Below are positions 12,521 to 63,377 of a DNA stretch of 64,000 nucleotides, piece by piece; within the stretch, counting starts at the first letter, position 1; every line of letters begins with the position of its first letter. The position numbers and the translations under genes were made by a program. The stretch lies in contig JBCCXL010000025.1 of NCBI GenBank assembly GCA_039191605.1, positions 2,074 to 66,073 on the forward strand, written 5' to 3'. Source of the stretch: Acidobacteriota bacterium (GTDB taxonomy: Bacteria > Acidobacteriota > Thermoanaerobaculia > Multivoradales > JAHZIX01). Under the pieces are notes generated by a model. The model was not told the origin of the DNA. It ran no database searches and saw only the letters and a list, made by a program, of their open reading frames with translations.

Positions 12521-12583
12521 TTGCGGGCCCTGCTCTACCGGCTGTGGGCCCATCGAAACCACGACGCTTTGGGAGAAACCGTC

Positions 12584-18799: not shown

Positions 18800-18871
18800 A
18801 ATGACCGGGCGCCGGGCGCTAGGGAAGTGCCCCAAGCCCTCTTGGGAGAGGCGATCCAGTCATGCAGCGAG

Positions 18872-24631: not shown

Positions 24632-25002
24632 GAAGGTCCAGCTTCGATGCCGTCACGACTCGCTGTGGAGGAGTTTCGGCAGGAGAGAACCGCGCGGATA
24701 CCGCGGGATGGAGCGTCTGCAGGGAGAAGACGACAGGACGATTCTCTGAGGGCTGATGGAGAATGGAAGCCGGTACGGACGAATCCTCGAAGGAGAGGCA
24801 AGAGAAGAGATGAGGGAGGCAGCGGAAGTGAGCGCATGCCTACCGTGAGGGGATTCAGGCAGTCTACGGAGGCATAGAAAGGGTGTCAACCGGAGGTGGG
24901 GCGACTCCCAGGGGCTCCGTCGAAGGCAGTCGCCGGCCCTGCTGGGATGACTTCAAAAAGCCGTTGGGGGCTGCAGATTGGCGGGAGTGCGGCAGAAATC
25001 CC

Positions 25003-25031
25003 TTGACTTACGCCGTGTTGCCGCCTACGAT
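25003..25031 (+). promoter_or_regulatory. candidate sigma-70 promoter of lexA (TTGACT-17 nt-TACGAT)
   Basis: TTGACT 25003-25008, a 17-nt spacer, then TACGAT 25026-25031. The ATG at 25039 begins 8 nt after the -10 hexamer and has no Shine-Dalgarno. Confidence 0.5.
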
Positions 25032-25038
25032 AATCGCC

Positions 25039-35776: not shown

Positions 35777-35919
35777 AGATCCCAAGACAATACCAAAAAA
35801 TCCTAGCGCGCCGTAGCACTCTGTCAGCGCAATTGAGGGGTTGGAAACTCTGGATCCTGCGCACCGGCGGTGTCGCGGCGACGGGATAGGGGGGCTCTGC
35901 GCTGCTAGAGTTGGAAGAT

Positions 35920-48262: not shown

Positions 48263-49483
48263 TCAGCTGGCGTACAGCTGGAGCTCCGACCCCACTCGAT
48301 CCGCCAGGCCGCAGGCGATCTCCAGATTGGGATGGCGCACGAAGAGCCAGCCGTCGGAGAGCAGGGTCGCCTTCCAGTTGCGCCGCGGATGCCCCAGCGG
48401 CAGCAGGTCCACGCCCACCACGTGCTCGCCGATTTCCGTCAGCAGACGCTGCAGGCCCTCGACTCGGGTGATGCGCCCCTGTCCCTGGGCGCGCTTGAAG
48501 ATCACCGAGGCGTTGTATTTGCGCTCCGTCGGCTGGGTCAGGCGACCGTGGCAGACCGCTTCTGCCCAGCCGACGTAGACGTCCGTGTCGCAGGTGTAGT
48601 TCATCAGATCGACGGAGCGTGCCCCCGGGGGGCGGCCACCGATCTCGCCGAATACCGCCTCGCCGCTGGAGGTGAGAAACCACTCCATATGGGTGAAGCC
48701 GGTGGAGAAGCCCAGGGCCTCGATCACCCGCTCCCCGAGGCGGTGTCCCGCCGCCAGCTCCGGCCGGTCGAGGTTGCGCAGGTTCATCGTCTGCGGGCTG
48801 ATCCACTCCAGGGAGCGGCCGACGAGGACGTTCGGGCGGTACCAAGCGATGTTGCGAAACAGGATCTCGCCGTTGGCGCAGATGGTGTCGAAGGTATATT
48901 CGCGGGCGTCGATGAACTCCTCGACGCTGACCTCCGGGACGTGGCGGATGCTGCTCAGCACCTCTTCCAGCTCGGCGTCGCTCTCCACTCGGTGGGTATC
49001 GGCGCTGCCGGCTCCGGCGATGGGCTTGATGATCAGCGGGTAGCCGATGCGCTCCGCCGCTTCCCGCACGCCCGCGGCGCTCTGCGCCGCGGCGTGGCGG
49101 GGAGTGCGGATGCCGGCGTTGTCGAGGGCCTGCTTCATCGCCTCTTTGTCGCGGAAGAGATGGGTTTGCTGGACCCCCATGCCGGGGAGCCCGAGGGTTT
49201 CCCGCAGCCTCGCGGCGAGCATCATGCCGGGCTCCCACAGACATTCCACCCGATCCACTCCGCCCCGCGGCCGCAGCCAGTCCACCACCGCGCGGGTGAC
49301 CTCCGCCTCGTTCCACAGGTTGGGTACCTGGAGATAGTCCGAGAGGGCGTGGCGGGCGGCCTGGGGGATCATCCCCGAGGGCTGGTCGCCGAGGCCGAAG
49401 ACCCGGGCTCCCACCTGCGCCAGACCGCGGGTGAAGAGGTTCATCTCGGTGGGGAAGCCGGGGGAGATCATCAACACCTTCAT
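48263..49483 (-). CDS. ATP-grasp ligase, L-amino-acid-ligase-like (paralog A)
   Basis: FRDKEAMKQALDNAGIRTP, GYPLIIKPIAGAGSADT, VEEFIDAREYTFD, FTHMEWFL, EIGGRPPG. GGAG Shine-Dalgarno before ATG 49483. Alignable along its length with 49606-50877 and 60347-61567. Confidence 0.8.
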   Translation of the reverse strand: MKVLMISPGFPTEMNLFTRGLAQVGARVFGLGDQPSGMIPQAARHALSDYLQVPNLWNEAEVTRAVVDWLRPRGGVDRVECLWEPGMMLAARLRETLGLPGMGVQQTHLFRDKEAMKQALDNAGIRTPRHAAAQSAAGVREAAERIGYPLIIKPIAGAGSADTHRVESDAELEEVLSSIRHVPEVSVEEFIDAREYTFDTICANGEILFRNIAWYRPNVLVGRSLEWISPQTMNLRNLDRPELAAGHRLGERVIEALGFSTGFTHMEWFLTSSGEAVFGEIGGRPPGARSVDLMNYTCDTDVYVGWAEAVCHGRLTQPTERKYNASVIFKRAQGQGRITRVEGLQRLLTEIGEHVVGVDLLPLGHPRRNWKATLLSDGWLFVRHPNLEIACGLADRVGSELQLYAS

Positions 49484-49605
49484 AGCGGGCTCCGGGAGGT
49501 TGGGGACTCTAGGGGGGAGAAGGAATGTCAGAAGCACGCCGGAAAGGGGCTCGTACTTCTTGTTTCAGGCTTTGGGCTTTGGGCTGCGGGATCGAGGTGG
49601 GGGCG

Positions 49606-50877
49606 TCAGCCGAGCTCCACCTGCACCAGGCTGATCAGTCGGTGCAGGGCCTTTTCTACAACTTCGGTCTCGGGGTGGCGCAGGATCACGAAGCCTTCGC
49701 CCTCGTAGGTGCCGGTGGGGGTCTGGCCTTCCTTCGGCAGGTGCGCCTCCACCACCAGGGAGCCGAGCTCCCGCTGGGCCTGATCAAGGCCGCGGATCGC
49801 TCGCACCCGGCTGCCGCGCCCCTGGCCGCGGAGGAAGGCGGCGCCGGTGGCGTAGCGCCGCGGCGGCAGCCACAGCTGATCGAAGATCGCCAGCCGGGCC
49901 CAGGTGCTCTTGAAGGGAGCGTCGTGGGCCCAGGACAGCAGGGAGGTGATCTGGGCCCCCGGGGGACGGGCACCGACCTCGGAAACCGCTACCGAGCCGT
50001 CGCCGCGGCGGAACCACTCCATGTGGGTCATGCCGGTGCCCATGCCGAGGGCGTCGAGGGCCTGGAATGCCACCGGCCGGAAATCGTCCCAGGCGGGGTC
50101 ATCGAGCTCCCGGGGGAGCAGCACGCACCACTGGATCCATGGGGTCTCCAGCACCTCCAGGGGGGTGGGGCGGTAGTGGCAGACGGAATGCCATAGAGGC
50201 TTGCCCTGGACGCACAGGGTCTCGAAGGAGGATTCTTCCCCCCGCACCCATTCTTCCAGCAGCAGCTCCCGCCCGAGGCCCGGTCGCAGCACCTCGAAGG
50301 AGCGCCGCAGGGCGTCGTCATCCTGCACTCGAAAGGTCGCCTTGGCGCCGGCGCCGGCGGGAGGCTTGACGATCAGTGGATAGCCCACCTCGGCGGCGAA
50401 GGCGAGGGCGGCGGAGACGTCGGTGACCAGCCGATGGCGAGCGCAGGGCACCCCCGCGGCGCGAAAAATCTCCTTCATCCGCGCTTTGTCCCGGAAGCCG
50501 CGGGCGGTCTCGGCGCTCATCCCGTCGATGCCGAGGGTGTCGCGCACCCGGCCGAGGGGAACCTGCAGCTGCTCGAGGGTGCCGAGGAGTCGGTCGACGC
50601 CCCCCAAGACCTTGGTGAGGTAGCGCACCGCCGAGGTCAGCTGCTGGGGATCGAGGGCCTGATCAACCCGGTAATGGGCGACCAGGCGGTGGCGCAGGGC
50701 CGCCGGCAGCTGCTCCACCGGCTGCTGGCTGACCAGGGCGAGGCGTACCCGCGGCAGCGAGGCGGCGGCCTCGATGAAGGCGTTGGTGGTGGGCAGAAAG
50801 AAGGGAGCGACGAAGACGACATTGCGATAATCCCTGGAGGGATCCGAGCCGTCGACGGAGGGTGCGGTATGGGGCAT
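49606..50877 (-). CDS. ATP-grasp ligase, L-amino-acid-ligase-like (paralog B)
   Basis: FRDKARMKEIFRAAGVPCA, GYPLIVKPPAGAGAKAT, MTHMEWFR, EVGARPPG. Divergent from glgA. Confidence 0.8.
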   Translation of the reverse strand: MPHTAPSVDGSDPSRDYRNVVFVAPFFLPTTNAFIEAAASLPRVRLALVSQQPVEQLPAALRHRLVAHYRVDQALDPQQLTSAVRYLTKVLGGVDRLLGTLEQLQVPLGRVRDTLGIDGMSAETARGFRDKARMKEIFRAAGVPCARHRLVTDVSAALAFAAEVGYPLIVKPPAGAGAKATFRVQDDDALRRSFEVLRPGLGRELLLEEWVRGEESSFETLCVQGKPLWHSVCHYRPTPLEVLETPWIQWCVLLPRELDDPAWDDFRPVAFQALDALGMGTGMTHMEWFRRGDGSVAVSEVGARPPGAQITSLLSWAHDAPFKSTWARLAIFDQLWLPPRRYATGAAFLRGQGRGSRVRAIRGLDQAQRELGSLVVEAHLPKEGQTPTGTYEGEGFVILRHPETEVVEKALHRLISLVQVELG

Positions 50878-50956
50878 GGGGAATCTCCCGGAGAGGCGGT
50901 GCGAGGGATGGCATTCCCTACGGCGTGCCGAGTATATGCGGGATAAGATCGAGAGT

Positions 50957-52414
50957 ATGAGCGCTCTGAAACTGTGTTTGCTTTCCGCCGAGATGGTTCC
51001 CTACGCCAAGACCGGTGGCCTCGCCGACGTCACCGCCGGTCTCTCCAGGTTCCTCGCCGCCGAGGGCCACGACGTGAGGGTCTTTCTTCCCTTCTACGAC
51101 GTCATCAAGTCCGCCGGCCGGGACTTCACGCCGGTCTCCTTTCTCACCGACGTACCGGTCACCCTGGGGGGGCGCACCTTTCGCTACACGGTGCGCACCG
51201 ATAGCGCCGGAGAGGGAGATGCGGGGCGCTATTTCATCGATTGCCCCGCCCTCTTCCACCGCGGGGGGATCTACACCGGAGGGCTGGACGACGCCCTGCG
51301 CTTCGCGGTGCTCACCCGCGCCACCATCGAGGCCTGCCAGCGCATGGGTTTCGCCCCGGACGTCTTCCACTGCAGCGATTGGCATACCGCCCTGCTTCCT
51401 CTCTACCTTCGGGTGCACTACGGCTGGGATCGCCTCTTCGCCAACTCCCGGACCCTGCTGACGATCCACAATCTCGGCTATCAGGGAGTGGTCTCCACCC
51501 AGCATCTGAACGCTCTGGATCTCGCCGGCTGCGCCGACATGCTCTACCAGGAAGATCTAGAGGCCGGGCGCCTGAGCTTTCTCAAGACCGGCTTTTTGTA
51601 CGCCGACTTTCTCTCCACCGTCAGCCGCACCTACGCGCGGGAGATTCAGACGCCGGACTTCGGTTTCGGCCTCGACGGCGTGTTGCGGGCGCGCTGGGAT
51701 CATCTGGTGGGCATCGTCAACGGCGTGGACTACGGAGACTGGAATCCGGCGGAGGATCCTCACCTTCCCGCCGCCTACAGCGTCGACGACCTCAGCGGCA
51801 AGGAGCGCTGTAAGCAGTACCTGCTGGAATCCCTGGGGCTGGACTACGACCCGAAGGTGCCGGTCTTCGGCATGGTGACCCGGCTGACTCCGCAAAAAGG
51901 GCTGGATCTTCTGCCGGGACCGGTTTCCGAGCTGCTGGGGGCTCACGACGTTCGCCTGGTGATGCTGGGCTCTGGGGAGCCCCGCTACGAGGCGATGCTG
52001 GCGGACTTCCAGCGCCGCTTTCCTAAAAAAGCCTGCTTCTTCCGCGGCTATAGCGAGCCCTTGGCCCATCTGGTGGAGGCGGGGAGCGATTTCTTCTTGA
52101 TGCCCTCCCGTTATGAGCCCTGCGGCCTGAATCAGATGTACAGCCTGCGCTACGGCACGGTGCCCATCGTGCGAAAGACCGGAGGACTAGCGGATACGGT
52201 GCAGCTCTTCGATCGCCAGCAGGGAGAGGGCACCGGCATCGTCTTCGACCACTTCGACGCCGACGCCCTGCGCTGGGCGCTGCTCTTCGCCCTCGATCTC
52301 TGGCGCCAGCCGGAGGCGCTGGAACAGGCGCGCCGCAACGCGATGAATCAGGACTATTCATGGCAATCCCAGGGACCTCAATACGTCGAGCTCTACCGCC
52401 GCCTGGTCGGCTGA
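50957..52414 (+). CDS. glgA: glycogen (starch) synthase, GT5
   Basis: LKLCLLSAEMVPYAKTGGLADV is the KTGGL motif. The C-terminal GT-B region reads PSRYEPCGLNQMYSLRYGTVPIVRKTGGLADTV. The start could also be ATG 50936. Confidence 0.9.
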   Translation: MSALKLCLLSAEMVPYAKTGGLADVTAGLSRFLAAEGHDVRVFLPFYDVIKSAGRDFTPVSFLTDVPVTLGGRTFRYTVRTDSAGEGDAGRYFIDCPALFHRGGIYTGGLDDALRFAVLTRATIEACQRMGFAPDVFHCSDWHTALLPLYLRVHYGWDRLFANSRTLLTIHNLGYQGVVSTQHLNALDLAGCADMLYQEDLEAGRLSFLKTGFLYADFLSTVSRTYAREIQTPDFGFGLDGVLRARWDHLVGIVNGVDYGDWNPAEDPHLPAAYSVDDLSGKERCKQYLLESLGLDYDPKVPVFGMVTRLTPQKGLDLLPGPVSELLGAHDVRLVMLGSGEPRYEAMLADFQRRFPKKACFFRGYSEPLAHLVEAGSDFFLMPSRYEPCGLNQMYSLRYGTVPIVRKTGGLADTVQLFDRQQGEGTGIVFDHFDADALRWALLFALDLWRQPEALEQARRNAMNQDYSWQSQGPQYVELYRRLVG

Positions 52415-52423: not shown

Positions 52424-52933
52424 TTGCAGATCTACCTGCCGATCTTCGAGACCCTGGACGTCGCTGAGCTGCGCTGGATGGTGGCTGGCGGCTGGGCGGT
52501 TTCTCTTCACGGGGCTCCACGAATGACCGTGGATCTAGATCTCGTCGTGGACCTCGAACCGCCGGCAGGGCAGGAGCTATTGGAGGCGTTTCGTCGTCTC
52601 GGCCTGGTTCCCCAGCTGCCGGTCCCGCCCCAAAACCTGCTGGATGCCAGTCTCCGGCGCCGTTGGCAAGAGGAGCGAGGGCTGCGGGCTTTCTCCTGGT
52701 ACGATGCCGCCAACCCCCTGAGGATTGTCGATTTAGTGCTGGCCCTACCGGCGCCCTTCGAAGACTTGTGGCAGCGGCGAGCGATGTTTTCGGTGCGAGG
52801 TCGCCGGATTGCCGCGGTGAGCCGCAAAGATCTCGTCGCGATGAAAGAGCAGGCCTCTCGACCGCGAGATCTCGAGGACCTTCGTCGCTTGATGCAATCG
52901 AGGGACGATGAACCCGGTGGGCAGCGATCTTAG
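52424..52933 (+). CDS. minimal nucleotidyltransferase-fold protein
   Basis: GGWAVSLHGAPRMTVDLDLVV fits the hG[GS]-x9-13-DxD NTase signature. TTG start 10 nt after the glgA stop. Confidence 0.55.
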   Translation: MQIYLPIFETLDVAELRWMVAGGWAVSLHGAPRMTVDLDLVVDLEPPAGQELLEAFRRLGLVPQLPVPPQNLLDASLRRRWQEERGLRAFSWYDAANPLRIVDLVLALPAPFEDLWQRRAMFSVRGRRIAAVSRKDLVAMKEQASRPRDLEDLRRLMQSRDDEPGGQRS

Positions 52934-52978
52934 GCCAGGGTATGCAAGCCAGGATAGGTAGGCCATGGAGATGGAGTC

Positions 52979-53320
52979 GTGACTGAGGTGAAAGATCAAC
53001 AGCCGAATGCCGAGGGGGGCGAAGACCCGCTGGCGGACGCTCCGTGGACGCCGGAGGCTTCGGAGAAAGAGCAGCTGCGGCGCATCGCCGGAGCCAGCGT
53101 TGAGGAGCGAGTCGCGTGGGTAGAGGACATGCTCCTCCTGGCCTTCGAGATGGGCTGGGCCCAGCCGGTGCGGCCGGTGGATGCCGAGACCTGGGAGCGC
53201 TGGCGGGAGCACGGGCGGCCTCCCGGGGATTGGCGTACGGCCCACGACCCGTGGCCAAGCGCAGACCACCAAGACCACTATCAGGCAGCGCCGAGTCGAG
53301 TTGAGGAGGACGGCCGATGA
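52979..53320 (+). CDS. hypothetical 113-aa protein
   Basis: GTG start; the stop overlaps the next ATG (ATGA at 53317). No family was recognised. Confidence 0.4.
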   Translation: MTEVKDQQPNAEGGEDPLADAPWTPEASEKEQLRRIAGASVEERVAWVEDMLLLAFEMGWAQPVRPVDAETWERWREHGRPPGDWRTAHDPWPSADHQDHYQAAPSRVEEDGR

Positions 53321-54777
53321 ACCTTTCCCAGCGATGCAGACTTTGGTGGAGAGCCTTGGCCCTCGGAGGGATGGTCCTCTCCTTCGCCGTCGCCTGTGGC
53401 AGCGCGGGGACTCAGGAGCCCCAGAGCCCGGCAGATGCTGCGGTGGCGGGAGCTGACGTCGGTTCTGAGACGAGCTCTGAGACGGACCTCGAGGGAGGTA
53501 CCAGCGAGGGGAGCGCAGATCTTTCGGGGGAAGGTTCCGCTGGTGGTCAGGCGCCTGCGAATGACGCGGCTACGAGCGCAGAAGCTGCCGCCCCTCGCCC
53601 CGCATCCGGTTTATCCCTCGCCCCCCTGCCAGCCCTGGAGGATGAGCTGGTGACGGCTCTGGGCTTTGCCCGGACGGCGGTGGAGGCCTACCGTCAAGGG
53701 CGCTATGACGAGGCCCGAGGGGCGCTGAATCGCGCCGCGACGGTGCTGGAGGGGGCACCGCTGCCGCCGGCATTCCGCCGCGCCGGGCTTCAGCTGCTGC
53801 AGCCCTCCCTGGCAGCGGAGGCCGCCGACGGTGCTCTTCCAGCACCGTCCCTGGAGGAATTACGGCAGCGGCTGGAGGCGGCATCGGCGGATCGAATCCT
53901 GCGCCGCCGCCTCGACCTGACCCGCCGGCTGGAGCCGGTCTGTCATGCCCTAGGGGCCAACGCTCCCCGCGATGCTCGGCTGCTGGACGATATCGCCGGG
54001 CATCTAGTGGAGCAGGCGCGCAACCCCGGGGCCATCAATACGGCCCTGCGTCGCCGTGCTCGCCACGGTGCGGTGGTGCGGGCGGAGCTGCGCCGCGCTG
54101 GATTACCCCAGGAGCTGGAGGCGCTGGTGCTGGTGGAGAGCCGATACGATCCCCAGGCCCGTAGCCCCGCCGGCGCCCGAGGCCTGTGGCAGCTGACCCC
54201 CAAGACCGCCAACGGCTTTGGGATTCGAGGAGCCCAGCTGCTGGATCCAGCAGATTCCACCCGCGCGGCGGCGGCCTATTGGCGACAGCTGCAGCAACTC
54301 TTCGGCCCCGAGCAGGTCACCCTCGCCCTAGCCGCCTACAACGCGGGCGAGAATCGGGTGCTGCGCTGCCTCCGGCAGGCGGAGGACCCGCTGAGGCGAA
54401 ATTACGAGCACATCGCACCGTGCCTGCCGCCGGAGACGCGGAATCACGTGCCCAAAGTGCTGGCGGCCTTCCTGGTGCTCGCCGACCCCGAAGCCTTCGG
54501 TCTGCGGGCTAACGCCGGTCCCGGGGCGGAGCAGCGCGGCCAAGGCGCGGGATCTAGCGCTAGCGGAGGCGCAACGAGGAGTGAGACTGGCGGCAGCGCC
54601 GGAAGCGCCAGCGGGGCTCAGACCGCGGCCCGCGAGCACGTGGTGGAAGCTGGCGAGACCCTCTACCGCATCGCGCTGCGCTATGGGCTGGCTCCGGAGC
54701 AGCTGGCGCGCTGGAACGGGATCGCCGACCCCCGCTCCCTGAAGCCCGGACAGGTCTTGCGGCTCGCGCCTCCGTAG
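53317..54777 (+). CDS. lytic transglycosylase (SLT domain) lipoprotein with C-terminal LysM
   Basis: Lipobox FAVAC. SLT motifs LVLVESRYDP (catalytic Glu), GLWQLTP, AAYNAGENRV. LysM reads HVVEAGETLYRIALRYG...LKPGQVLRL. Confidence 0.85.
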   Translation: MNLSQRCRLWWRALALGGMVLSFAVACGSAGTQEPQSPADAAVAGADVGSETSSETDLEGGTSEGSADLSGEGSAGGQAPANDAATSAEAAAPRPASGLSLAPLPALEDELVTALGFARTAVEAYRQGRYDEARGALNRAATVLEGAPLPPAFRRAGLQLLQPSLAAEAADGALPAPSLEELRQRLEAASADRILRRRLDLTRRLEPVCHALGANAPRDARLLDDIAGHLVEQARNPGAINTALRRRARHGAVVRAELRRAGLPQELEALVLVESRYDPQARSPAGARGLWQLTPKTANGFGIRGAQLLDPADSTRAAAAYWRQLQQLFGPEQVTLALAAYNAGENRVLRCLRQAEDPLRRNYEHIAPCLPPETRNHVPKVLAAFLVLADPEAFGLRANAGPGAEQRGQGAGSSASGGATRSETGGSAGSASGAQTAAREHVVEAGETLYRIALRYGLAPEQLARWNGIADPRSLKPGQVLRLAPP

Positions 54778-55479: not shown

Positions 55480-56271
55480 ATGTCATCTCATCGTCTAAGC
55501 CTCTTCATCGCCTCCATCGCCCTGTTGGCCTTGGCTCTCGGCGCCGCTTTCAACTCTCCGCTCCAGGCGGCCGATCGCATTTCCATGCCGGACTCTTACG
55601 AGCCCCAGGACCTCATCGCTGAGGACTGGCAGCCGTTGGGGGTCGACGCCTGGACCCGCACGGCCCTGAACGGGCACCAGCAATTCCTCGCCACCACCGA
55701 GCGCGGCATGATCGCTCTGCGGCCGGTAATTCACGAGCGCATGTCCTATGCCGTGGAGCTCTACCTGCGCCACGGCGACAAGGGTTTCCTGAAGGTCATG
55801 GAGCACCACCAGGCAACCCTGCGCAAGATCGATGCTCTCGAGGCGAAGCACGGCTCCGGCCCGGGCCTGATGAGCCGTGAAGCGGCGGGCACCTCCAAGG
55901 CCGCCGCGCCGCCGCCGCAATGCTCCATCGACGTGCTGGTAGATACCGGCCATGTCGGCTGCTACAACGTGGCCTATGCCGAAGGTGAGTACATCGCCGA
56001 TCAGGCTCCCTGTCTCGGCAACTGCGAGCTGTGGACCTTCGCCTTCGCCGGTCGCACCAGCTGCACCACCGGCGTCGAGACCTACGATTACGACATCACC
56101 GAGATCACCTACAGCGCTCCCGGTGGCGGCGGGCATTACAGCAACGCCTTCCACCTCACCACCGACAACGAGTCCTGCAACAACTTTGCTGAGGCGGAGT
56201 GGAATTGCAGCGCCGGGGGCTTCCTCTACGACTACACCACCGGCAGCGACTGCGGCTGCTGGGCCTGCTAA
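55480..56271 (+). CDS. secreted protein with helical N-terminal region and Cys-rich C-terminal domain (10 Cys)
   Basis: AGGAGAG Shine-Dalgarno; signal peptide MSSHRLSLFIASIALLALALGAAFNSPLQA. The C-terminal ~120 aa holds 10 cysteines and ends DCGCWAC. No family was recognised. Confidence 0.7.
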   Translation: MSSHRLSLFIASIALLALALGAAFNSPLQAADRISMPDSYEPQDLIAEDWQPLGVDAWTRTALNGHQQFLATTERGMIALRPVIHERMSYAVELYLRHGDKGFLKVMEHHQATLRKIDALEAKHGSGPGLMSREAAGTSKAAAPPPQCSIDVLVDTGHVGCYNVAYAEGEYIADQAPCLGNCELWTFAFAGRTSCTTGVETYDYDITEITYSAPGGGGHYSNAFHLTTDNESCNNFAEAEWNCSAGGFLYDYTTGSDCGCWAC

Positions 56272-56315: not shown

Positions 56316-56345
56316 AAAACCGCCGGCCCCTGGGCCGGCGGTTTT
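56316..56345. terminator. bidirectional intrinsic terminator between convergent genes
   Basis: AAAA-CCGCCGGCC-cctg-GGCCGGCGG-TTTT: a perfect 9-bp GC stem flanked by an A tract and a T tract. Confidence 0.8.
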
Positions 56346-56388: not shown

Positions 56389-57630
56389 TCAACCGGGGTT
56401 GCCCTCGGTCTCCCGCCAGTGCTGGATGCGGCCCCAGAAGAGCTCGGTGAAGGGCTCGATCTCGTGGTCCGGGTAGAGGGCGCTGACCTTCTGGCGGACG
56501 GCGTTCTTGGCGGTCTCGCTGCCGAAGAACTCCCACACGATCTCGTCGAGATGGAGCAGGTGGCGGGCCTGGAAGTCCTCGAAACGGTCGACCTCCAGAC
56601 GCTCCCGGGCGATGGCGGCGTAGGCGGCGACGCGCTCGCGGTAGGGCAGATCCTGCTCCAGCACCTGGTAGTAGGGCTCCCAGTCGACGGTGCGGAGCAT
56701 CTTGCGGCCGGTGACGGCGCAGTACAGGGACCAGGCGATCTTCGAGCGGATCAGCCACGGGAAGTGGTAGTGCAGGGAGGTGACCTGGGAATCGGGGCAG
56801 GCGTTGGCGAAGTCGATGGGGTGGAAGACGCCATCGGCGCGCAGGGATTCGCAGGAGTTGAAGTCCCAGCCGAAGAAGGTGTTGATGGTGAGGGTCATGT
56901 CCTCCAGCAGCTGGCGCTCGTCGGCGCTGATCTGCGGAGTCTCCATGGTGTAGCGGTCATGGAGAGGAGCGGAGGGATCGTAGCGCACGATCTTGACCTG
57001 AGGGCCGAGGCCGACGCAGCGCACGAAGAGGTCGTGGGGCAGCACGGCCTTCTGTAGATGCATCAGCCGCTTGCCGCTCTCGTTGTAGGCCTTGTGGAGC
57101 TGCTCCGCGTTGTCGATCTTGTTGACCCCCACCCAGGCGCCGCCGTCGTAGGGCTTGATGAAGAGGGGATAGCCGATGGTCTCGCCGATGCTGTCGAGAT
57201 CGAAGAGGCGAGCGTAGCGGGCCAGAGTGGGCTCGAGGTCGGGGCTGGGCTCGTATTCTTTCTGCGGCACCAGCCAGGTTTCCGGCACCGGAAAGCCGAG
57301 GTGAGCGATGGCGGCGTAGGTGGTGGCCTTCTCCATGCTCTGCACGCTCCACGGATTGTTGAGCACGTAGAGCTGATCCATCAGGATGGATTTCTTGATC
57401 CACTCCCGGCTGGGGTAGTACCAGTGGGTGAGGCGATCCAGCACCACGTCGTAGCGGCAGGGCTGACGAATGTCGAAGGGCTCGATGGTGACTCGCTCCA
57501 CCTCGACCTGCACCGTATCCCCTTTCCAGGGCACCGAAAGGTCCAGTCGGCGCACGATCTCCTCGTAGCACAGGGGCCAACAAATATCTGCGCCCAGGGA
57601 AAGACCGATGCGCCGGGTGACTTCAGCCAT
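56389..57630 (-). CDS. ATP-grasp ligase, RimK/glutathione-synthetase-like (distinct from paralogs A, B and D)
   Basis: GYPLFIKPYDGGAWVGVNKIDNAEQL, LFVRCVGLGPQVKIVRYDP, and the N-terminal pre-ATP-grasp pattern RYDVVLDRLTHW. GAGGAGG Shine-Dalgarno 5 nt before the ATG, 27 nt after the esterase stop. Confidence 0.75.
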   Translation of the reverse strand: MAEVTRRIGLSLGADICWPLCYEEIVRRLDLSVPWKGDTVQVEVERVTIEPFDIRQPCRYDVVLDRLTHWYYPSREWIKKSILMDQLYVLNNPWSVQSMEKATTYAAIAHLGFPVPETWLVPQKEYEPSPDLEPTLARYARLFDLDSIGETIGYPLFIKPYDGGAWVGVNKIDNAEQLHKAYNESGKRLMHLQKAVLPHDLFVRCVGLGPQVKIVRYDPSAPLHDRYTMETPQISADERQLLEDMTLTINTFFGWDFNSCESLRADGVFHPIDFANACPDSQVTSLHYHFPWLIRSKIAWSLYCAVTGRKMLRTVDWEPYYQVLEQDLPYRERVAAYAAIARERLEVDRFEDFQARHLLHLDEIVWEFFGSETAKNAVRQKVSALYPDHEIEPFTELFWGRIQHWRETEGNPG

Positions 57631-57657
57631 GATGCCTCCTCGCTCGTCGAGCGAGCG

Positions 57658-58797
57658 TCATTCGTAAACCATCCACAGCGGGCCGGGGAAGAGCCACGAG
57701 AGGCCCTCCCTCAGGCGGTCCCGCCAATTTTCCCAATTGTGGCCGTCCCGAGCCTCGACGTAGCGCACTTCGAGGCCCGACTCCCGCAGCAGCGGGATCA
57801 GGGAGCGGTTGTAGTAGATCGGGCGTTCGTAGGTTCCACAACAGATGAATAGCTTATCCGCTGGGCGACCGGGGCGGCTGCGAAAGCGGTTGACGAAGGC
57901 CACCACCGGGTCGAAGACCGGGCCCTTCTGGTGCTCGCCGATGTCGGTGAAGGCGAAGGAGCCGGATTGCAGCAGCAGGCGGTCGAAGGTGCCGGGGTAG
58001 CTCCACGCCGCGTGCAGGGAGGCGACGGCGCCGAAGCTGGCGCCCATCAAGCCTCGAGACCCAGGGGCGTCGGTGAGGGGGTAGCGTTCCTCCATCGCCG
58101 GCAAGAGCTCTTCCACCAGGAAGCGCGCGTGCTTTGGATTGGCGCCGTACTCCACCAGTCGCTGGTCGCCGGGGGCCTGGGTCAGGGCGACGATCATCGG
58201 GGGGATCTCGTGACGGTGGATGAGGTTGTCGAGCACCGTCTTGAGCCCGGAATAGTCGAGGTATTCGAAGCCGTCATGGACGATCAGGAGGGGGTAGCGA
58301 GCGCGGGGGCGAAAGCGCGCCGGGAGATAGACCCCCACCCGGCGCTGCTCACCGAAAGCGGCGGAGGACACCATCAGGTTCTCGAAGCTTCCCGGACGGG
58401 CCTCGGGATCCGGGTGGGCCCATTCCGGCTCGACGTAGCCCTCGCTGTGGGCCACCGAGTTGGCGCCGAAGGGATCCCGCGCCAGGTGCGGGTTCAGCGG
58501 ATCCCGCACCCAGCTGCGGCTCTCCCCCTGATGGACCTCGAATTTGTACTCTACCCGCGATCCCCGGGGGAGCTGGAGGGTGGTGTGCCAGAGGTCTAGA
58601 TCCTGCACCGGATCCAATATCTGCCCGGTCTCGAGGCCGAAGATGAAGTGCTTCAGCTCTACTCGATCCGCCGAGCCGTGGTAGACGAAGGTGACGTCGG
58701 AGCCTTCGACGAGAGGGAATTCGTGGCTCTCCAGGAAAGCGTGGAGATCCTGGTGATCCGGCTGAGCGTCGAGAAAGCGATCGAGAACCGAGGTCAC
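57658..58797 (-). CDS. alpha/beta-hydrolase esterase (PF00756-like) with N-terminal CBM48/E-set-like beta-sandwich
   Basis: The N-terminus VTFVYHGSADRVELKHFIFGLE...WHTTLQLPRGSRVEYKFEV...WVRDPLNP has a CBM48/E-set pattern. The hydrolase core is YPLLIVHDG...RGLMGASFGAVASL (GxSxG). GTG 58797 overlaps the upstream stop (GTGA). Confidence 0.75.
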   Translation of the reverse strand: MTSVLDRFLDAQPDHQDLHAFLESHEFPLVEGSDVTFVYHGSADRVELKHFIFGLETGQILDPVQDLDLWHTTLQLPRGSRVEYKFEVHQGESRSWVRDPLNPHLARDPFGANSVAHSEGYVEPEWAHPDPEARPGSFENLMVSSAAFGEQRRVGVYLPARFRPRARYPLLIVHDGFEYLDYSGLKTVLDNLIHRHEIPPMIVALTQAPGDQRLVEYGANPKHARFLVEELLPAMEERYPLTDAPGSRGLMGASFGAVASLHAAWSYPGTFDRLLLQSGSFAFTDIGEHQKGPVFDPVVAFVNRFRSRPGRPADKLFICCGTYERPIYYNRSLIPLLRESGLEVRYVEARDGHNWENWRDRLREGLSWLFPGPLWMVYE

Positions 58798-60041
58798 GGT
58801 GAGTCTCCGGCGGGTAGCTGCGGTGGGGGGAGCTCGACTCCCGAAGCGCGGGATCGGGGGGAAGGCTGCGGTTCCGTGGGGTTGGCTCCCTCGGAGTTGA
58901 TCTCCTCGGTCCAGCGGCCGTCGATATCCTCTCCCTGACTGGAAGGGGGCCACGGCCAGTCGGGGCGCCAGCGCGCCGACTCGCCAGGGAAGGGGGCCAC
59001 GGATCCATCCGGGAGCAATCGCTTCACCTCGCCACCGCTGACGCATCGAAGCTGGTCTCCGTCGCCGTATTGGTGAGCGGCTTCAGGATGGAGAGAGTCG
59101 TGGTGGCTTCTCTTCCCGGCGTTGTCGTTGTCGTTGTCGTTGTCGTTCTCGTTCCCGCTGGCGTTCAGCGAAGCTGTGGGCCAGCAGTCGACGCTATCTC
59201 CCTGATCCAGGGTGAGAGCGGCCATCGGCGCGAAGCGGCGGGCGAAGAGCCCCACTCGCACCGGATCATCCAGCTGAAGCCGGCTACTGGCGTGGGGCAG
59301 GGGGAGCACCCCCGGCACCAGGCCTAGACCGCGGTCGAGGATCTCGGCGTTACCGGCCCCCTGGGGCGGTCGATCGTGGAACAGAACGATGTGCTCGGCG
59401 CACGCCATGGCTCCGGCGGACCAGGCGATCACCGGTTTCCCGACCAGGAGCTCGGGCAGGCCGAAGAGCCGCAGCCGATTCAGCAGCACCGCCACATGGC
59501 CACCGGCGATGGTCACCGCCGCGGCGCCTTCGAGAATGCTCGCCAGCTCTTCCCGATCCGGCTTCAGAGCCGCCTCGGTGCGGGCGCGCCACAGGGCATC
59601 GTGGCGATCGTGAATCTCGGCGATGCGGCGGCAGTGGTGACCGTCCAGGTGGCGCACTAGCTCCAGGGCATCCTGGCGCTCCGGGTCGATCAGCGCCCCC
59701 GGGTCTGGCAGGCGCAATAGCTGCCGGGTGCTCTCCAGCAGCGGATGCAGTCTGCGGCGGTAGAGGCGCTGGAGATCCTTGAGGCGATTTTGGCGACGGC
59801 GCAGGGCGTTGAAGAGCTCCGGGTGGGCTTCGAACGCGGCATCTGCCCGGGCATGGAGCCTCAGGTTGACCACTTCCCGGCCGACGTGCTCGCGGAGCTC
59901 GTCGACCTCTTCCTCCCGCTCCTGCCAGCCGGCGGTGACGGTGGCAATAGGGCCATCGATCTCGAGACGCCGCAGGGCGTCGACGATGATCGGCTGAAGT
60001 CGCTGGGGTCCGAGGAGAGTAACGCTGGTGGGGTGACTCAT
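58794..60041 (-). CDS. S51-family (cyanophycinase / dipeptidase E-like) peptidase with helical insertion and low-complexity C-terminal tail
   Basis: AVTIAGGHVAVLLNRL, the nucleophile motif PVIAWSAGAMA (G-x-S-A-G), and LPLPHASS (His) ~35 aa later. A ~125-aa charged helical insert lies between the first strands and the GG motif. Start taken at ATG 60041. Confidence 0.65.
   Translation of the reverse strand: MSHPTSVTLLGPQRLQPIIVDALRRLEIDGPIATVTAGWQEREEEVDELREHVGREVVNLRLHARADAAFEAHPELFNALRRRQNRLKDLQRLYRRRLHPLLESTRQLLRLPDPGALIDPERQDALELVRHLDGHHCRRIAEIHDRHDALWRARTEAALKPDREELASILEGAAAVTIAGGHVAVLLNRLRLFGLPELLVGKPVIAWSAGAMACAEHIVLFHDRPPQGAGNAEILDRGLGLVPGVLPLPHASSRLQLDDPVRVGLFARRFAPMAALTLDQGDSVDCWPTASLNASGNENDNDNDNDNAGKRSHHDSLHPEAAHQYGDGDQLRCVSGGEVKRLLPDGSVAPFPGESARWRPDWPWPPSSQGEDIDGRWTEEINSEGANPTEPQPSPRSRASGVELPPPQLPAGDSP
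59121..59153. repeat. hexanucleotide microsatellite (GTTGTC)4-5 inside the S51 gene (encodes NENDNDNDNDN)
   Basis: gttgtc gttgtc gttgtc gttgtc gttctc gtt, read directly. Confidence 0.9.
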
Positions 60042-60346
60042 GGGAGGTGCTATTATCCATGGGTTACGCCACAGCAAGAAGCCCGAGTCGAGGTCTCGCT
60101 GCATTCGACGAGATGGCGCTGAGCGGTGGCGGGGCAACTCACTCTCTCCGCTCCATTTTCTGGTTGCCGATCCAGCTCTGGGCTCCACCGCATTCCTTGG
60201 CTGGTCCCTTGGCTGCATCCCTCGACTGGTGTGCCCAACGAATCACCTTTTCGACAGTCTGATCCTGAGTTTGATTCGCCGCTCGGCCTGTCGTGGTCGG
60301 GCCGAGATTTCCCGCCTCAACCCGCCTCAACCATGAGAGCCGCACC

Positions 60347-61567
60347 ATGCACGTGCTATTCGTCGAGCCGTCTTTTCCCTACAACCAGATTCGCTTCGTC
60401 CAGGCCCTGGCGAGCGTCGGCGCCAGGGTCACCGGGATTGGCGAAGTGCCCCCGGATCACCTACCGAGCGCGGTGCGAGAAGCGCTTCACGGCTATGAGC
60501 ACATCGGCAACGTCTGCGATACCGGGGCGCTCTACGGAGCGGTGCGCCGAGTGCAGCAGCGGGGCTGGGTCGATCGCCTGGAGGCGACGGTGGAGGCACA
60601 CATTCTCACCGCCGCGAAGGTCAGGGAAGCCTGCCAGATTCCCGGCACCACCGAGCGCACCGCCTTCCTCTGCCGCGACAAGCCGGCGATGAAGGAGGCG
60701 TTGCGCCAGGCCGGGGTCCCCTGTGCCCTCTCTATCGGCTCCTCCGACCCGAAAGAGATTCGGGATTTTGCCCGCCAGACCGGCTATCCCTTGATCATCA
60801 AGCCTCGCGACGCCGCCGGCGCGGCGGGAACCTGGAAGGTGGAAACCGACGACGATTTAGAACGGGTGTTGCGGGAATCCGGCGCGGCGGCGGGGCGCTC
60901 CGTCGCCGTGGAGGAGTTCATCGAGGGCCACGAGGCCTTTTACGACACCCTCACCATCGGCGGGGAGGTGGTGTACGAATTCATCACCCATTACTACCCC
61001 GGGGTGCTGGAGGCGATGCGGACGCGCTGGATCTCGCCTCAATTCATCGCCACCAACCGGGTAGATGCGGAGACCTACGCCGAGGTCAAGGAGATGGGCA
61101 AGCGGGTCATCGAGGTGCTGGGCATCGGCACCTCCGCCACTCATATGGAGTGGTTCTATGGACCCAAGGGGCTGAAATTCTCCGAGATCGGCTGCCGGCC
61201 GCCGGGGGTCGGGGCGTGGGATCTCTACTGCGCCGGCAACGATATGGATCTCTACCGTCAGTGGGCGATGGCCCTGGTTCATCGACGGGTAGAGCAGCCG
61301 GCCTCTCGCCGCTTCGCCGCCGGCATCATCAACCTGCGGCCGGATCGCGACGGGCATATCGCCGGCTACGAGGGGCTCGAAGGGATTCAGCAGGCCTTCG
61401 GCGACTGGATTCTCGACTCCAAGCTGCCCAACCCCGGCACCCCCACTCAGCCGGTGGAGGCGGGCTATATGGCCAACGCCTGGCTCCGCATGCGCCATCC
61501 AGATTACGACGAGCTTCGCCGGATGCTCGATCTGGTGGGGAAGACGGTGAAGGTGCGAGCTGCCTGA
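60347..61567 (+). CDS. ATP-grasp ligase, L-amino-acid-ligase-like (paralog D)
   Basis: CRDKPAMKEALRQAGVPCA, GYPLIIKPRDAAGAAGT, VEEFIEGHEAFYD, ATHMEWFY, EIGCRPPG. Divergent from the S51 operon. Confidence 0.8.
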   Translation: MHVLFVEPSFPYNQIRFVQALASVGARVTGIGEVPPDHLPSAVREALHGYEHIGNVCDTGALYGAVRRVQQRGWVDRLEATVEAHILTAAKVREACQIPGTTERTAFLCRDKPAMKEALRQAGVPCALSIGSSDPKEIRDFARQTGYPLIIKPRDAAGAAGTWKVETDDDLERVLRESGAAAGRSVAVEEFIEGHEAFYDTLTIGGEVVYEFITHYYPGVLEAMRTRWISPQFIATNRVDAETYAEVKEMGKRVIEVLGIGTSATHMEWFYGPKGLKFSEIGCRPPGVGAWDLYCAGNDMDLYRQWAMALVHRRVEQPASRRFAAGIINLRPDRDGHIAGYEGLEGIQQAFGDWILDSKLPNPGTPTQPVEAGYMANAWLRMRHPDYDELRRMLDLVGKTVKVRAA

Positions 61568-61808
61568 GGATCTGTTGAGGGGGGGTGATCTTTGGAGGAG
61601 GTGCCGCGGTGGCGGCGCAGCGTTCTTCCCCCAAGAACACCCTGGAGTCCTCGATATCGCTATGGAGTCCACATAGCCCTGCTAGTCCACGCAGTCCATC
61701 AAGTTCCCGTAGTTCTGGTTTTCGCCGTGCGCTTCTGCCCATCGTGACTCAGCCCCAATCTAGAATCTTCTTCCCTTCCCTTCTTTAACCAGTGGAGTTC
61801 CAGTAACC

Positions 61809-63377
61809 GTGTCCACCTCAGCTACCGCCTCGATCTCCAGCCCGCCGAGCCCTCAGCTGCCGGAACGCTTCGAGCCTGTTCCCGACTTTCTCACCGCTGC
61901 TGAGCCTCGGCTCGTATGGCAGCGCTTCAACGAGCTGCGTCAGATCCCTCGACCTTCGAAGGCGGAACAGGCGGCGGTGCGCTGGGTGGAGAATTGGGCG
62001 GCGGACCACGAATTCCAGCTGCGCCGCGACGCCCGAGGCAACCTCGCGGTGGACGTACCGGCCTCCGTCGGTCGCGAGAAAGCTCCCAAGGTCGTTCTCC
62101 AGGCTCATCTCGATATGGTGTGCGAGAAGAATAGCGATACCGAATTCGACTTTCTGAAGGATCCCATTCGGCTGCTGCGGGACGGCGATCTGATCACCGC
62201 CGACGGCACCACCCTCGGCGCCGATAACGGCATCGGCGTTGCCGGGATGATGGCGATGGCGGAGGATCCGGAGGTCATCCACGGCCCTCTGGAGCTGCTC
62301 TTCACCCTCGATGAGGAGACCGGGCTGAACGGCGTGCGGGATCTCGACCCGGCGCTGGTGACCGGCGATCTACTGATCAACCTGGATACCGAGGACGATC
62401 ACATGCTGACCGTCGGCTCGGCCGGAGCCCAGGGCGTTTCCCTGAGTTTCGCCGTCACCCGGGAGGCCGAAGCGCCAGCGGCGCTGAGCCTGCTGCGGCT
62501 GCGAGTCACGGGAGCCACCGGCGGCCATTCCGGAGCCGATATTCACCTCGGGCGAGTCAACGCCAACAAGGTTTTAGGAGAGATTCTCGCCGCTCTTCAC
62601 TACAAGGCGCCGGGATCGGCCATCGTCGACCTCCAGGGTGGGAGCGCCCGCAACGTGATTCCTCGAGAATCTGAGGTGCTGTTGTGGGCCGAGCCGAGGA
62701 CCGCGGCGGCGGTCGTGGAGAAAGCTCGGGGGGTGATGCGCCAGCGCTATGCCGCTACTGATCCTCACCTACAGATCGAGTTATTGGAGGAGGATAGCGA
62801 GGCGAAGCCGGCGCCGTGGACCGCGGAAACCACGGAAGCGATCCTGCTGCTGCTGCGGCGGTTGCCCAACGGCCGCCTGAAGCGCAGCGAGCGCTTCCCG
62901 GAGCTCACCCAAACCTCCGCCAATCTCGCCGTGATGCACTGTGGTGGCGAAACTAAGCAGGATGGAACGGTGGAGGAGGAGGGCTTTCACATCCTCTACT
63001 CCTGCCGCTCGTCGGTGATGGAGGAGCTCTTCGCCACCACCGAAAGGATCGCTATCATCGCCCGCGAGTTAGGGGCCGAGGCGGAGATCCTCGCCAGCTA
63101 CCCCAGCTGGGAGCTGCCGGAAAATTCTGCTCTGCTGGAGATCTGCCGCCGGGAATTCCAGCGAATCCTCGATCAGGAGCCGGAGGTGACGGCGGTGCAC
63201 GGCGGCCTGGAATGCGCCGTTCTCGGGGACAAAGTGCCCCGCCTCGACGTGATCTCTCTAGGCCCCAATATTGCCAACCCCCATTCGCCCGACGAGTGGG
63301 TGAGCATCGCCTCGGTGGAGAAGGTCTTCCAGCGCCTGCTGCCGGGTCTCCTCGACGCTCTCTCTGCCGAAAGCTGA
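61809..63377 (+). CDS. pepD: aminoacyl-histidine (Xaa-His) dipeptidase, M20C
   Basis: FNELRQIPRPS, VVLQAHLDMVCEK, GTTLGADNGIGVAGMMAM, VHGGLECAVLG, GPNIANPHSPDEWVSI: typical PepD signatures. GTG start. Confidence 0.85.
   Translation: MSTSATASISSPPSPQLPERFEPVPDFLTAAEPRLVWQRFNELRQIPRPSKAEQAAVRWVENWAADHEFQLRRDARGNLAVDVPASVGREKAPKVVLQAHLDMVCEKNSDTEFDFLKDPIRLLRDGDLITADGTTLGADNGIGVAGMMAMAEDPEVIHGPLELLFTLDEETGLNGVRDLDPALVTGDLLINLDTEDDHMLTVGSAGAQGVSLSFAVTREAEAPAALSLLRLRVTGATGGHSGADIHLGRVNANKVLGEILAALHYKAPGSAIVDLQGGSARNVIPRESEVLLWAEPRTAAAVVEKARGVMRQRYAATDPHLQIELLEEDSEAKPAPWTAETTEAILLLLRRLPNGRLKRSERFPELTQTSANLAVMHCGGETKQDGTVEEEGFHILYSCRSSVMEELFATTERIAIIARELGAEAEILASYPSWELPENSALLEICRREFQRILDQEPEVTAVHGGLECAVLGDKVPRLDVISLGPNIANPHSPDEWVSIASVEKVFQRLLPGLLDALSAES

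Follow-up and report, generated by a model that had tools for sequence, protein, structure and literature searches.

A recurrent cluster of ATP-grasp ligases and hydrolases near glycogen genes, found in an Acidobacteriota bacterium and in many other species

The described systems that come closest to the locus analysed in this work are cyanophycin metabolism, the oligopeptide pathways built on L-amino-acid ligases (Lal), glutathione-type synthesis and the Fes/CE1 esterases. There is precedent for a logic with several ligases, as two Lal-type ligases assemble tripeptides convergently (PMC11867202), and S51 peptidases act on unusual aspartyl amides (PMC9239234). Here we present a computational analysis of a stretch of 64,000 nucleotides from an Acidobacteriota bacterium (contig JBCCXL010000025.1; the whole stretch is called the window below). 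It holds a cluster of four ATP-dependent ligases, the ATP-grasp proteins A, B, C and D, and two or three hydrolases, which recurs near glycogen genes in hundreds of species. An earlier note, made from the letters of the window, could not match this gene set to a described pathway, and our own search agrees: the gene combination was not found in the searchable full-text literature, although an earlier in silico mention may exist in comparative genomics.

We tentatively propose, giving it somewhat less than an even chance, that the window holds one copy of a cytoplasmic module, linked to glycogen, which builds and degrades a peptide-like, non-ribosomally made compound whose bonds are amides and probably also esters. 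The proteins of the module carry no signal peptide, and ligases and hydrolases share one operon, which is a logic of building and degrading. The conservation of four to five ligases and three hydrolases near glycogen genes in at least several hundred species argues for a physiologically important product. Identifying it could uncover a so far undescribed storage or stress compound in bacteria that are abundant in soil, sediment and wastewater, a novel enzymology of peptide or depsipeptide formation, or a new glycogen modification. Two unannotated protein families are defined here, ATP-grasp C and an S51-like protein with a helical hairpin, and cultured carriers exist in Nannocystis punicea, Kribbella and Ornithinimicrobium, so that the question can be put directly to experiment.

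Layout of the locus and its recurrence

The gene coordinates given in the earlier note were reproduced by the listing of open reading frames (ORFs) and by domain scans with Pfam and NCBIfam, together with the signals and neighbours that it had described (the GTGA junction, the 27-nt spacer, the GAGGAGG motif, the terminator, the divergent gene D and the paralogs A and B). The features are the following.

48263..49537, minus strand: ATP-grasp A, 424 amino acids (aa), L-amino-acid-ligase type (Pfam and PDB match 4wd3)
49606..50877, minus strand: ATP-grasp B, 423 aa, L-amino-acid-ligase type (Pfam/NCBIfam ATP-grasp matches)
50876..52414, plus strand: GlgA, ADP-glucose-type glycogen synthase (PF08323 and TIGR02095)
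56316..56345: bidirectional intrinsic-terminator-like hairpin, between a secreted Cys-rich ORF (plus) and ATP-grasp C (minus)
56389..57630, minus strand: ATP-grasp C, 413 aa, ATG start at 57630 (ATP-grasp fold and conserved residues)
57658..58797, minus strand: Fes/CE1-type serine esterase, 379 aa, GTG start (PF00756)
58794..60041, minus strand: S51-like hydrolase, 415 aa (PF03575 and fold search)
60052..60057, minus strand: -10-like box GATAAT, 10 nt upstream of the S51-like ATG, which has no Shine-Dalgarno sequence
60347..61567, plus strand: ATP-grasp D, 406 aa, L-amino-acid-ligase type (Pfam ATP-grasp and PDB match)
61809..63377, plus strand: PepD, Xaa-His / non-specific dipeptidase, M20 (TIGR01893)

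Species-representative genomes were scanned three times, with the S51-like protein, ATP-grasp C and divergent relatives of C as seeds, which yielded 189 loci. The main count refers to 77 pooled and deduplicated loci in which ATP-grasp C has 6 kb or more of sequence to either side, and 42 C-anchored loci with flanks of the same minimum length form an unbiased subset. The frequencies of the gene families are as follows.

Esterase: 91% of the 77 loci, 83% of the 42 C-anchored loci
S51-like protein: 83% and 76%
Second small esterase: 78% and 71%
Ligase D: 68% and 60%
Ligase A: 49% and 43%
GlgA: 48% and 48%
Ligase B: 43% and 40%
GCS2-CBS ligase: 36% and 33%
PepD: 1% (1/77) and 2%

We find the arrangement again in well over 100 independent genomes that span about ten phyla, which upholds the earlier claim that these genes form a functional unit, and the scans with C and its relatives place the module in at least 561 species genomes. 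From the S51-like gene through the esterase and C to the small esterase, the gene order is retained, with gaps below 100 nt or overlaps. Carriers are labelled as Acidobacteriota, Myxococcota, Gemmatimonadota, Planctomycetota, Eisenbacteria, Binatia, Gamma- and Alphaproteobacteria and Acidimicrobiales, a few labels of metagenome-assembled genomes being clearly mis-binned, and they include the cultured strains Nannocystis punicea FL3 and Acidobacteria bacterium Mor1. The module has probably spread horizontally. The gene set proposed earlier has to be redrawn in part: the esterase, C, the S51-like protein, D, A and B do recur, PepD is no member, and two frequent members, a second small PF00756 esterase of about 250 aa and the GCS2-CBS ligase, were absent when searched for in the window.

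In a divergent minimal form, found in Actinomycetota (Kribbella, Nocardioides, Ornithinimicrobium), Chloroflexota and Calditrichota, the esterase and the small esterase are accompanied by a C-like gene (40-45% identity). Because this form keeps these three genes, the universal core is, judged by gene content, the esterase, ATP-grasp C and the small esterase, with the S51-like protein and the Lal-type ligases as add-ons. Some variants of the minimal form may be recorded here. The Chloroflexota loci L124, L129 and L135 have two tandem C-like ATP-grasp genes behind the small esterase, that is, a duplicated core ligase, and the operon of the Calditrichota-type loci (L114-L116, L130) encodes a YbdK-like GCS2 protein, a major facilitator superfamily (MFS) transporter, the small esterase, a C-like ATP-grasp protein and the esterase.

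In the window the module is split into two blocks about 5.5 kb apart, A, B and glgA on one side and C, the esterase and the S51-like gene on the other. Three ORFs separate glgA from C (52745-53278; an SLT-LysM protein at 53317-54777; a secreted Cys-rich protein at 55480-56271), and since they have no counterparts in related loci we take them as an insertion. The closest relative, L034, shares the mirror-image layout of the window, with PepD behind D and with glgA and the divergent pair B and A only 1.2 kb from C. The secreted protein (plus strand, 263 aa) has a signal peptide and a Cys-rich C-terminal half, gave no Pfam or NCBIfam match, and is not conserved beside the module elsewhere.

The link to glycogen, which the earlier note had offered as a possibility, is backed by synteny with glgA, glgC, glgX, malQ and pgm. 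Of the 127 loci of at least 15 kb, 59 have a glycogen gene no more than 8-10 kb from the module, and the genes found in loci of this length are GlgA (46), GlgC (12), MalQ (7), GlgX (6), Pgm (6, in Actinomycetota) and a large GH13 protein (2). In Myxococcota, Gemmatimonadota, Binatia, Eisenbacteria and Gammaproteobacteria glgA stands directly upstream on the same strand with gaps below 100 nt; in several phyla it heads the operon, and other loci pair it with glgC. This upstream same-strand placement and the pairing with glgC make the module-linked GlgA look like an ordinary glycogen synthase and not a diverged paralog. The GlgA of the window matches PF08323 with 231.8 bits and TIGR02095 with 523.3 bits (cutoff 328.45). 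It contains the KTGGLAD motif twice and its homology begins at about residue 32, and its true start is likely the ATG at 50957. A second glucan-related locus, 35-40 kb from the module, is an alpha-glucan/maltodextrin utilisation cluster at 1581-15267 (plus strand). Besides a neopullulanase-like GH13 enzyme it encodes a MalK-like ATPase with a solute-binding protein and two permeases, of which the first, with 707 aa, is unusually long; three further proteins are of the Glucodextran_C type (PF09985), and an ORF of 732 aa has no Pfam match.

The signals between the genes are compact. The stop codon TGA of the S51-like gene (58796-58794) and the GTG start of the esterase (58797-58795) are counted as having three bases in common and spell GTGA at 58797-58794; the same two genes overlap by four bases on an independently gene-called marine contig. 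A spacer of 27 nt follows between the esterase and ATP-grasp C, with GAGGAGG 5 nt ahead of the ATG at 57630, and the hairpin at 56316-56345 has a 13-bp stem with 9 GC pairs and a 4-nt loop, set between an A-run and a T-run. The MSHPT start of the S51-like protein is backed by an N-terminal alignment of 36 homologs and by L034, and the MHV start of ATP-grasp D is kept in relatives. These two genes are divergent and 305 nt apart, and a consensus promoter scan of the region between them gave no match. Around the -10-like box of the S51-like gene (60042-60060 region, minus strand), 21 nt, GGATAATAGCACCTCCCATGAG, are identical in L034, and GATAAT or another TAnnnT box lies 7-12 nt before the S51-like start, with no Shine-Dalgarno sequence, in L034, L038, L039, L043, L050, L083, L090 and L100. 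TAnnnT-like boxes are spaced in this way in other loci whose genes are arranged divergently. The closeness of this box to the start and the missing Shine-Dalgarno sequence suggest that the transcript of the S51-like gene, the esterase and ATP-grasp C may be leaderless or have a very short leader.

Other searches around the module were negative. Rfam and tRNA scans of the window were empty, domain scans of its 40-64 kb part found no Mur-ligase domain, non-ribosomal peptide synthetase (NRPS) or transporter, as the earlier note had stated for the CphA-type domain and the other two, and PADLOC returned no defence-system match. A precursor peptide or substrate gene was sought in the related loci and none was found, nor was any extra conserved family present in more than 11 loci. 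A cluster for ribosomally synthesised and post-translationally modified peptides, such as a graspetide cluster, was considered and rejected, as the gaps in compact operons (<130 nt) are too short and hold no conserved precursor ORF.

The ligases and hydrolases of the module

As far as sequence comparison and modelling indicate, ATP-grasp C is an isolated, very conserved and previously unannotated ATP-grasp family and the anchor of the universal core. Its only Pfam match is a partial one to Dala_Dala_lig_C (24.8 bits), and D-Ala-D-Ala ligase models match over 40 residues only, with about 25 bits versus cutoffs above 240. The rimK_fam and GshB models gave no match at E<=0.01, so the earlier description of C as RimK/GshB-like is not sustained. 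The AlphaFold2 (AF2) model has a pLDDT (predicted local distance difference test) of 72.5, with a disordered or poorly modelled lid domain and a C-terminal helical extension. In Foldseek it retrieved MdnC, synapsin, RimK, Ddl and ITPK1 at probability 1.0, with template modelling (TM) scores of only 0.3-0.47, which are low because the lid is poorly modelled. C belongs to the ATP-grasp superfamily by its fold and by its conserved Lys and Mg-binding acidic and Asn residues: K159, the ATP-binding Lys, and E261, D273 and N276, the Mg-binding residues, are invariant even in relatives of 26-41% identity. Identity across phyla is 63-76%. The family is small, with 1571 matches at E<=1e-3 among 1.8 billion representatives, and a plasmid collection contained no match. 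A gene-fusion search among divergent homologs of C returned one case only, the esterase-C fusion P0368. In this metagenomic protein of 616 aa the C-terminus of the esterase (PF00756) is joined to a C-like ATP-grasp protein, which would be either a Rosetta-stone fusion or a read-through or artefact of gene calling.

The other ATP-grasp proteins of the window are of the L-amino-acid-ligase type, judging from their free-standing ATP-grasp architecture and from A and D being nearest to characterised Lals. The best PDB match of A (E=4e-17) and of D (E=9e-17) is the L-amino acid ligase 4wd3, which we take to be RizA of the rhizocticin pathway, followed by BL00235 (3vot) and BacD. B gave ATP-grasp matches only in Pfam and NCBIfam and clusters with A and D at 30-37% identity. 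A, B and D are three distinct orthologous groups, as orthologs from different phyla are 42-75% identical and the paralogs are mutually 30-37% identical: A orthologs in other loci share 47-75%, versus 31-38% between A and D orthologs, and B orthologs share 42-66%. A and B occur together in 32 loci, B lies upstream of A and divergent from glgA, and a D ortholog is present in 21 of 22 S51-anchored loci. All four ATP-grasp proteins are 406-424 aa long and have no Mur-ligase domain, so they do not have the architecture of CphA (G plus M domain, about 870 aa), and they score 31-37 bits with the cyanophycin synthetase model TIGR02068, whose cutoff is 850. Many relatives encode a fifth ligase in the same operon as the ATP-grasp ligases, a GCS2-family carboxylate-amine ligase of about 700 aa with two CBS domains and a weak GCS2 match (31 bits).

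The esterase combines an N-terminal beta-sandwich of about 130 aa, of the enterochelin-esterase type, with a C-terminal PF00756 alpha/beta-hydrolase domain (80.2 bits). Since it reaches 104.9 bits with the enterochelin-esterase equivalog NF007758, under the cutoff of 222, and since neither domain scans of the window nor the related loci revealed siderophore genes nearby, it is on sequence grounds a PF00756 family member and not a Fes equivalog. Its best PDB matches are Fes (2b20, E=9e-14) and then ferulic acid esterases, and the closest solved relatives cleave aminoacyl or sugar esters. In a set of 70 orthologs the motifs GASxG and DGHxW reach a conservation of 95% or more. The earlier view of this protein as a CBM48-esterase could not be established. 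The N-domain matches Enterochelin_N best (E=3.5e-4), then CBM_20 (E=0.0075), and stays below threshold with CBM_48 (PF02922; E=0.037, 14.8 bits, cutoff 22.4). Homologs have PF00756, with about one third of the 119 listed having PF11806 as well and none of those CBM_48, and a comparison by hhalign with the CBM48 domains of GlgX proteins from the neighbourhood gave a probability of 0.4%, on a thin template of 3 sequences. Read by eye, the N-domain of the Calditrichota-type esterases (L114-L116, L130) shows an FNGW motif, which we take to be typical of CBM48/CBM20 modules.

The S51-like protein exceeds the PF03575 cutoff marginally (25.0 versus 23.9 bits) and over profile positions 70-164 only. 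Single-sequence and profile searches of the PDB returned no S51 entry, and S51 was found by the fold search alone. The AF2 model (pLDDT 87.9) has a class-I glutamine amidotransferase (GATase)-like/S51 fold, and Foldseek matched it to PepE (6iru), a pseudo-CphB (7uqv) and cyanophycinase (3en0) with probability 1.0, E of 3e-6 to 5e-4 and TMt of 0.45-0.66. The fold holds an inserted two-helix hairpin of about 110 residues (62-172), and the protein is a previously unannotated family. The earlier note had called it S51 cyanophycinase/PepE-like; the S51 fold is there, and equivalence to cyanophycinase or PepE is not supported, given the absence of any match to the NCBIfam cyanophycinase/PepE equivalogs, the helical insertion and the variable canonical His.

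The motifs GGH(V) and WSAGAM are conserved in the family, with Ser208 at a nucleophile elbow of the GxSAG type that aligns with the Cys elbow of PdxT. Of 65 members, 57 have S at the nucleophile position, 7 have C and one has A. His250 of the window protein lies in a PLPH motif at S51-typical spacing; this His is kept in 42 of the 65 members and replaced by D, Q, S or E in the other 23. H222, H182, H136, D133, E43, R65, R254 and R269 are invariant. In the Polyangia/Labilithrix clade (L019-L021, L024, L029, L030, L033) the nucleophile is changed from Ser to Cys, the canonical His to Gln and, in 6 of 7 loci, FHD to FHH (L024 retains FHD), coordinated substitutions that hint at an alternative catalytic arrangement. 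Homologs are typically about 310 aa long. The window copy is about 100 residues longer owing to a low-complexity Asn-Asp (ND) repeat insert, encoded in the stretch 59120-59166 with its hexanucleotide tandem repeat at 59120-59153 (CGTTGT x5.7 on the plus strand), and to a Pro-rich C-terminal tail of about 65 aa.

PepD is a clear member of its family (TIGR01893, 466.6 bits, cutoff 343.75). It adjoins the module only in the two closest relatives, L001 and L034, lying 18 nt behind D in the latter, and is therefore a lineage-specific neighbour, at most an accessory last-step dipeptidase; the role as an integral gene of a carnosine-type logic that had been assigned to it is not borne out. AstE/AspA-like and formylglutamate-amidohydrolase-like genes occur in some Myxococcota loci. 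It looks as if terminal amidohydrolases are swapped lineage by lineage, and PepD may fill this role in the window.

A proposed build-and-degrade cycle and its alternatives

In the cycle that we propose, A, B and D would each spend ATP to turn a carboxylate into an acyl-phosphate, which they would then couple to an amino group, working in series or convergently like the enzymes of multi-ligase oligopeptide pathways. C would add a further bond, which we take to be most likely an ester or an amide cleavable by alpha/beta-hydrolases because one or two Fes/CE1-type esterases nearly always flank C, and these esterases would reverse that bond. The S51-like Ser hydrolase, the usual companion of ligase D, would cleave the peptide part. 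The breakdown would be completed by variable last-step amidohydrolases, PepD here and enzymes resembling AstE/AspA or formylglutamate amidohydrolase elsewhere. A tie of the cycle to carbon and energy status would come from its being co-transcribed with or adjacent to glgA, glgC, glgX, malQ or pgm, and from the CBS domains that the fifth ligase has in many genomes; the compound may serve as a reserve or as a stress compound. The enzymes look active, given the invariant ATP- and Mg-binding residues of C, the esterase motifs and the predominance of Ser at the S51 nucleophile.

Several points weigh against this proposal. The S51-like protein and the Lal-type ligases are missing in the minimal form of Actinomycetota and Chloroflexota, so that the peptide part may be an add-on and the core chemistry could differ. 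A polymer and a short peptide fit the data equally, substrates and product being inferred; five ligases exceed the needs of any known reserve polymer, and judging from the domains a CphA-like polymerase architecture is absent. The 63-75% conservation of C is unusual for small-molecule enzymes. Because the canonical His is replaced in 23 of 65 members, the S51-like protein may not be a conventional peptidase in every lineage. Finally, the adjacency to glycogen genes could reflect direct action on the glucan rather than co-regulation.

This last point leads to the best of the alternatives, which we still consider unlikely: reversible esterification of glycogen or another alpha-glucan. C would attach a carboxylate (an amino acid, a peptide made by A, B and D, or an organic acid) to hydroxyls and the esterases would remove it, with the S51-like enzyme and the dipeptidases trimming and recycling the peptide part. 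It explains the esterase core and the glycogen genes most economically. These genes stand beside the module in 59/127 long loci, with differing genes per phylum, and glgA is directly upstream on the same strand at less than 100 nt in five groups, including Myxococcota and Binatia; nevertheless, roughly every second locus lacks a glycogen gene within 10 kb. The relatives of the esterase include sugar-ester hydrolases (ferulic acid esterases and esterases with an 'isoamylase N-terminal domain'), and its N-domain gives weak CBM_20/CBM_48 signals, to which the FNGW motif read by eye in the Calditrichota-type esterases could be added. However, these CBM signals are sub-threshold, the hhalign comparison with the GlgX N-domains gave 0.4% (with its 3-sequence template) and the esterase homologs are labelled Enterochelin_N. 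Likewise, the fold matches of C include ATP-grasp enzymes that acylate or phosphorylate hydroxyls (MdnC, ITPK1), but these are no better than RimK or Ddl. To our knowledge no aminoacylated or peptidylated glycogen has been described, which also weighs against this explanation.

A RimK-style tailing and untailing of protein, in which C, with or without A, B and D, adds amino acids to a conserved protein and the hydrolases erase them, is slightly less probable again. The 63-75% identity of C across phyla would suit an enzyme whose substrate is a conserved macromolecule, the fold matches of C include RimK and MdnC, which modifies peptides, and AstE/AspA-like genes of carboxypeptidase fold lie near some loci. 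Iyer et al. (2009) reportedly proposed similar pairings for RimK-type systems. Still, neither a conserved candidate substrate gene nor a small precursor ORF is present in the compact operons with their gaps below 130 nt, enzymes of the L-amino-acid-ligase type normally use free amino acids, and the linkage to glycogen would be left unexplained.

We regard as rather improbable that the module makes a secondary metabolite, that is, a bioactive 'Trojan-horse' oligopeptide assembled by the L-amino-acid ligases, for whose maturation or for self-immunity the S51-like peptidase and the esterases would be used. Clusters with several Lals produce phosphonopeptides and similar compounds (PMC11867202), and S51 peptidases give immunity to a peptidyl-nucleotide antibiotic (PMC9239234). 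An L-amino acid ligase is the best PDB match of A and D, and the Calditrichota-type variant includes an MFS transporter. However, no exporter, warhead-biosynthesis gene or regulator was found in the window or in most loci, the conservation and the spread over at least 561 species genomes are housekeeping-like and atypical of antibiotic clusters, and the association with glycogen genes has no explanation here.

The version of the earlier note, a true cyanophycin-like (beta-Asp-Arg) or carnosine-type cycle with the S51 protein as cyanophycinase/PepE and PepD as an integral member, seems to us very doubtful. The S51 fold is present, PepD adjoins D in the window as in L034, and the ATP-grasp domains weakly match the G-domain region of cyanophycin synthetase. 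These matches are no better than those to Ddl or carbamoyl-phosphate synthetase (CPSase), the CphA architecture with its Mur-ligase domain and any NCBIfam match to cyanophycinase/PepE are lacking, the S51-like protein has its 110-residue insertion and variable canonical His, and PepD occurs in 1/77 loci; a true beta-Asp-Arg system is not indicated. The wider idea of that note, a cycle for a reserve or an osmolyte, is compatible with what we observe. A chance adjacency of unrelated genes, each from a separate known pathway, is hardly credible: it could appeal to the split of the cluster in the window, with A, B and glgA about 5.5 kb from C, the esterase and the S51-like gene and unrelated genes between them, but the order is conserved in more than 100 genomes of about ten phyla and the blocks of L034 are only 1.2 kb apart.

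The rest of the window and the comparison with described systems

Some observations concern parts of the window away from the module. A low-GC island at 16200-19500 (54-58% versus about 65% GC) may have been acquired horizontally and holds a 705-aa ORF (16483-18600) with an N-terminal GFO_IDH_MocA Rossmann match only. At 46251-48230 (plus strand) a 659-aa fusion joins chorismate mutase and prephenate dehydratase (PheA) to a partial 3-deoxy-D-arabino-heptulosonate 7-phosphate (DAHP) synthase domain (positions ~135-302 of 338); the fusion is unusual and its synthase part may be truncated. A 696-aa protein at 33695-35785 (minus strand) is GreA/GreB-like only over its last ~145 residues, and the LexA encoded at 24883-25857 (plus strand) has an N-terminal extension of about 120 residues.

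Compared with described systems, the module shares with cyanophycin metabolism (CphA, CphB/CphE, isoaspartyl dipeptidase) the presence in one locus of ATP-grasp ligation, an S51-fold serine hydrolase and a terminal dipeptidase, the cytoplasmic location, and the reserve-material logic of keeping genes for synthesis and degradation together. It differs in having neither the M domain of CphA nor an NCBIfam synthetase or cyanophycinase match at cutoff. In place of one synthetase there are three free-standing Lal-type ligases, a novel ATP-grasp protein and, in many loci, a GCS2 ligase. A helical hairpin and a canonical His that varies set the S51-like protein apart, two Fes/CE1 esterases belong to the core, and glycogen genes are linked to the module.

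The Lal oligopeptide pathways (RizA/rhizocticin, BacD/bacilysin, PnaB and PnaC/phosphonoalamides) include the enzymes nearest to A and D in the PDB and have several ligases per locus, and the module ligases could likewise act sequentially or convergently (PMC11867202). In contrast to these pathways, the module has no genes for warhead biosynthesis or export, is far more widely spread and more strongly conserved, and has hydrolases and glgA in the operon.

With glutathione-type synthesis the module shares, in many relatives, a GCS2-family ligase in one operon with ATP-grasp ligases, and PF00756 also contains S-formylglutathione hydrolases. However, the GCS2 gene lies outside the window, its product matches GCS2 weakly (31 bits) and bears two CBS domains, C is not GshB-like, and there are no thiol-related genes. 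The Fes/CE1 esterases have the same succession of an Enterochelin_N-type beta-sandwich and a PF00756 Ser-His hydrolase domain, and Fes is the best PDB match (E=9e-14); the module esterase differs from them in scoring below the equivalog cutoff, in having no siderophore genes beside it and in its strict coupling to an ATP-grasp gene.

A last comparison is by analogy only. In the reversible phosphorylation of plant starch, the dikinases GWD and PWD, with an ATP-grasp-type nucleotide domain, are opposed by the phosphatases SEX4 and LSF2, which have a glucan-binding module. As in the locus described here, an ATP-using enzyme is paired with a hydrolase and tied to alpha-glucan turnover; homology is at the superfamily level at most, the hydrolases of the module are of carboxylesterase type and their glucan binding is putative. 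There is a slim chance that the core, C with the two Fes/CE1-type esterases, uses ATP to esterify glycogen reversibly, with amino acids or with short peptide products of A, B and D. If this were true, it would be a previously unknown covalent modification that couples carbon and nitrogen storage, and a bacterial counterpart of starch phosphorylation.

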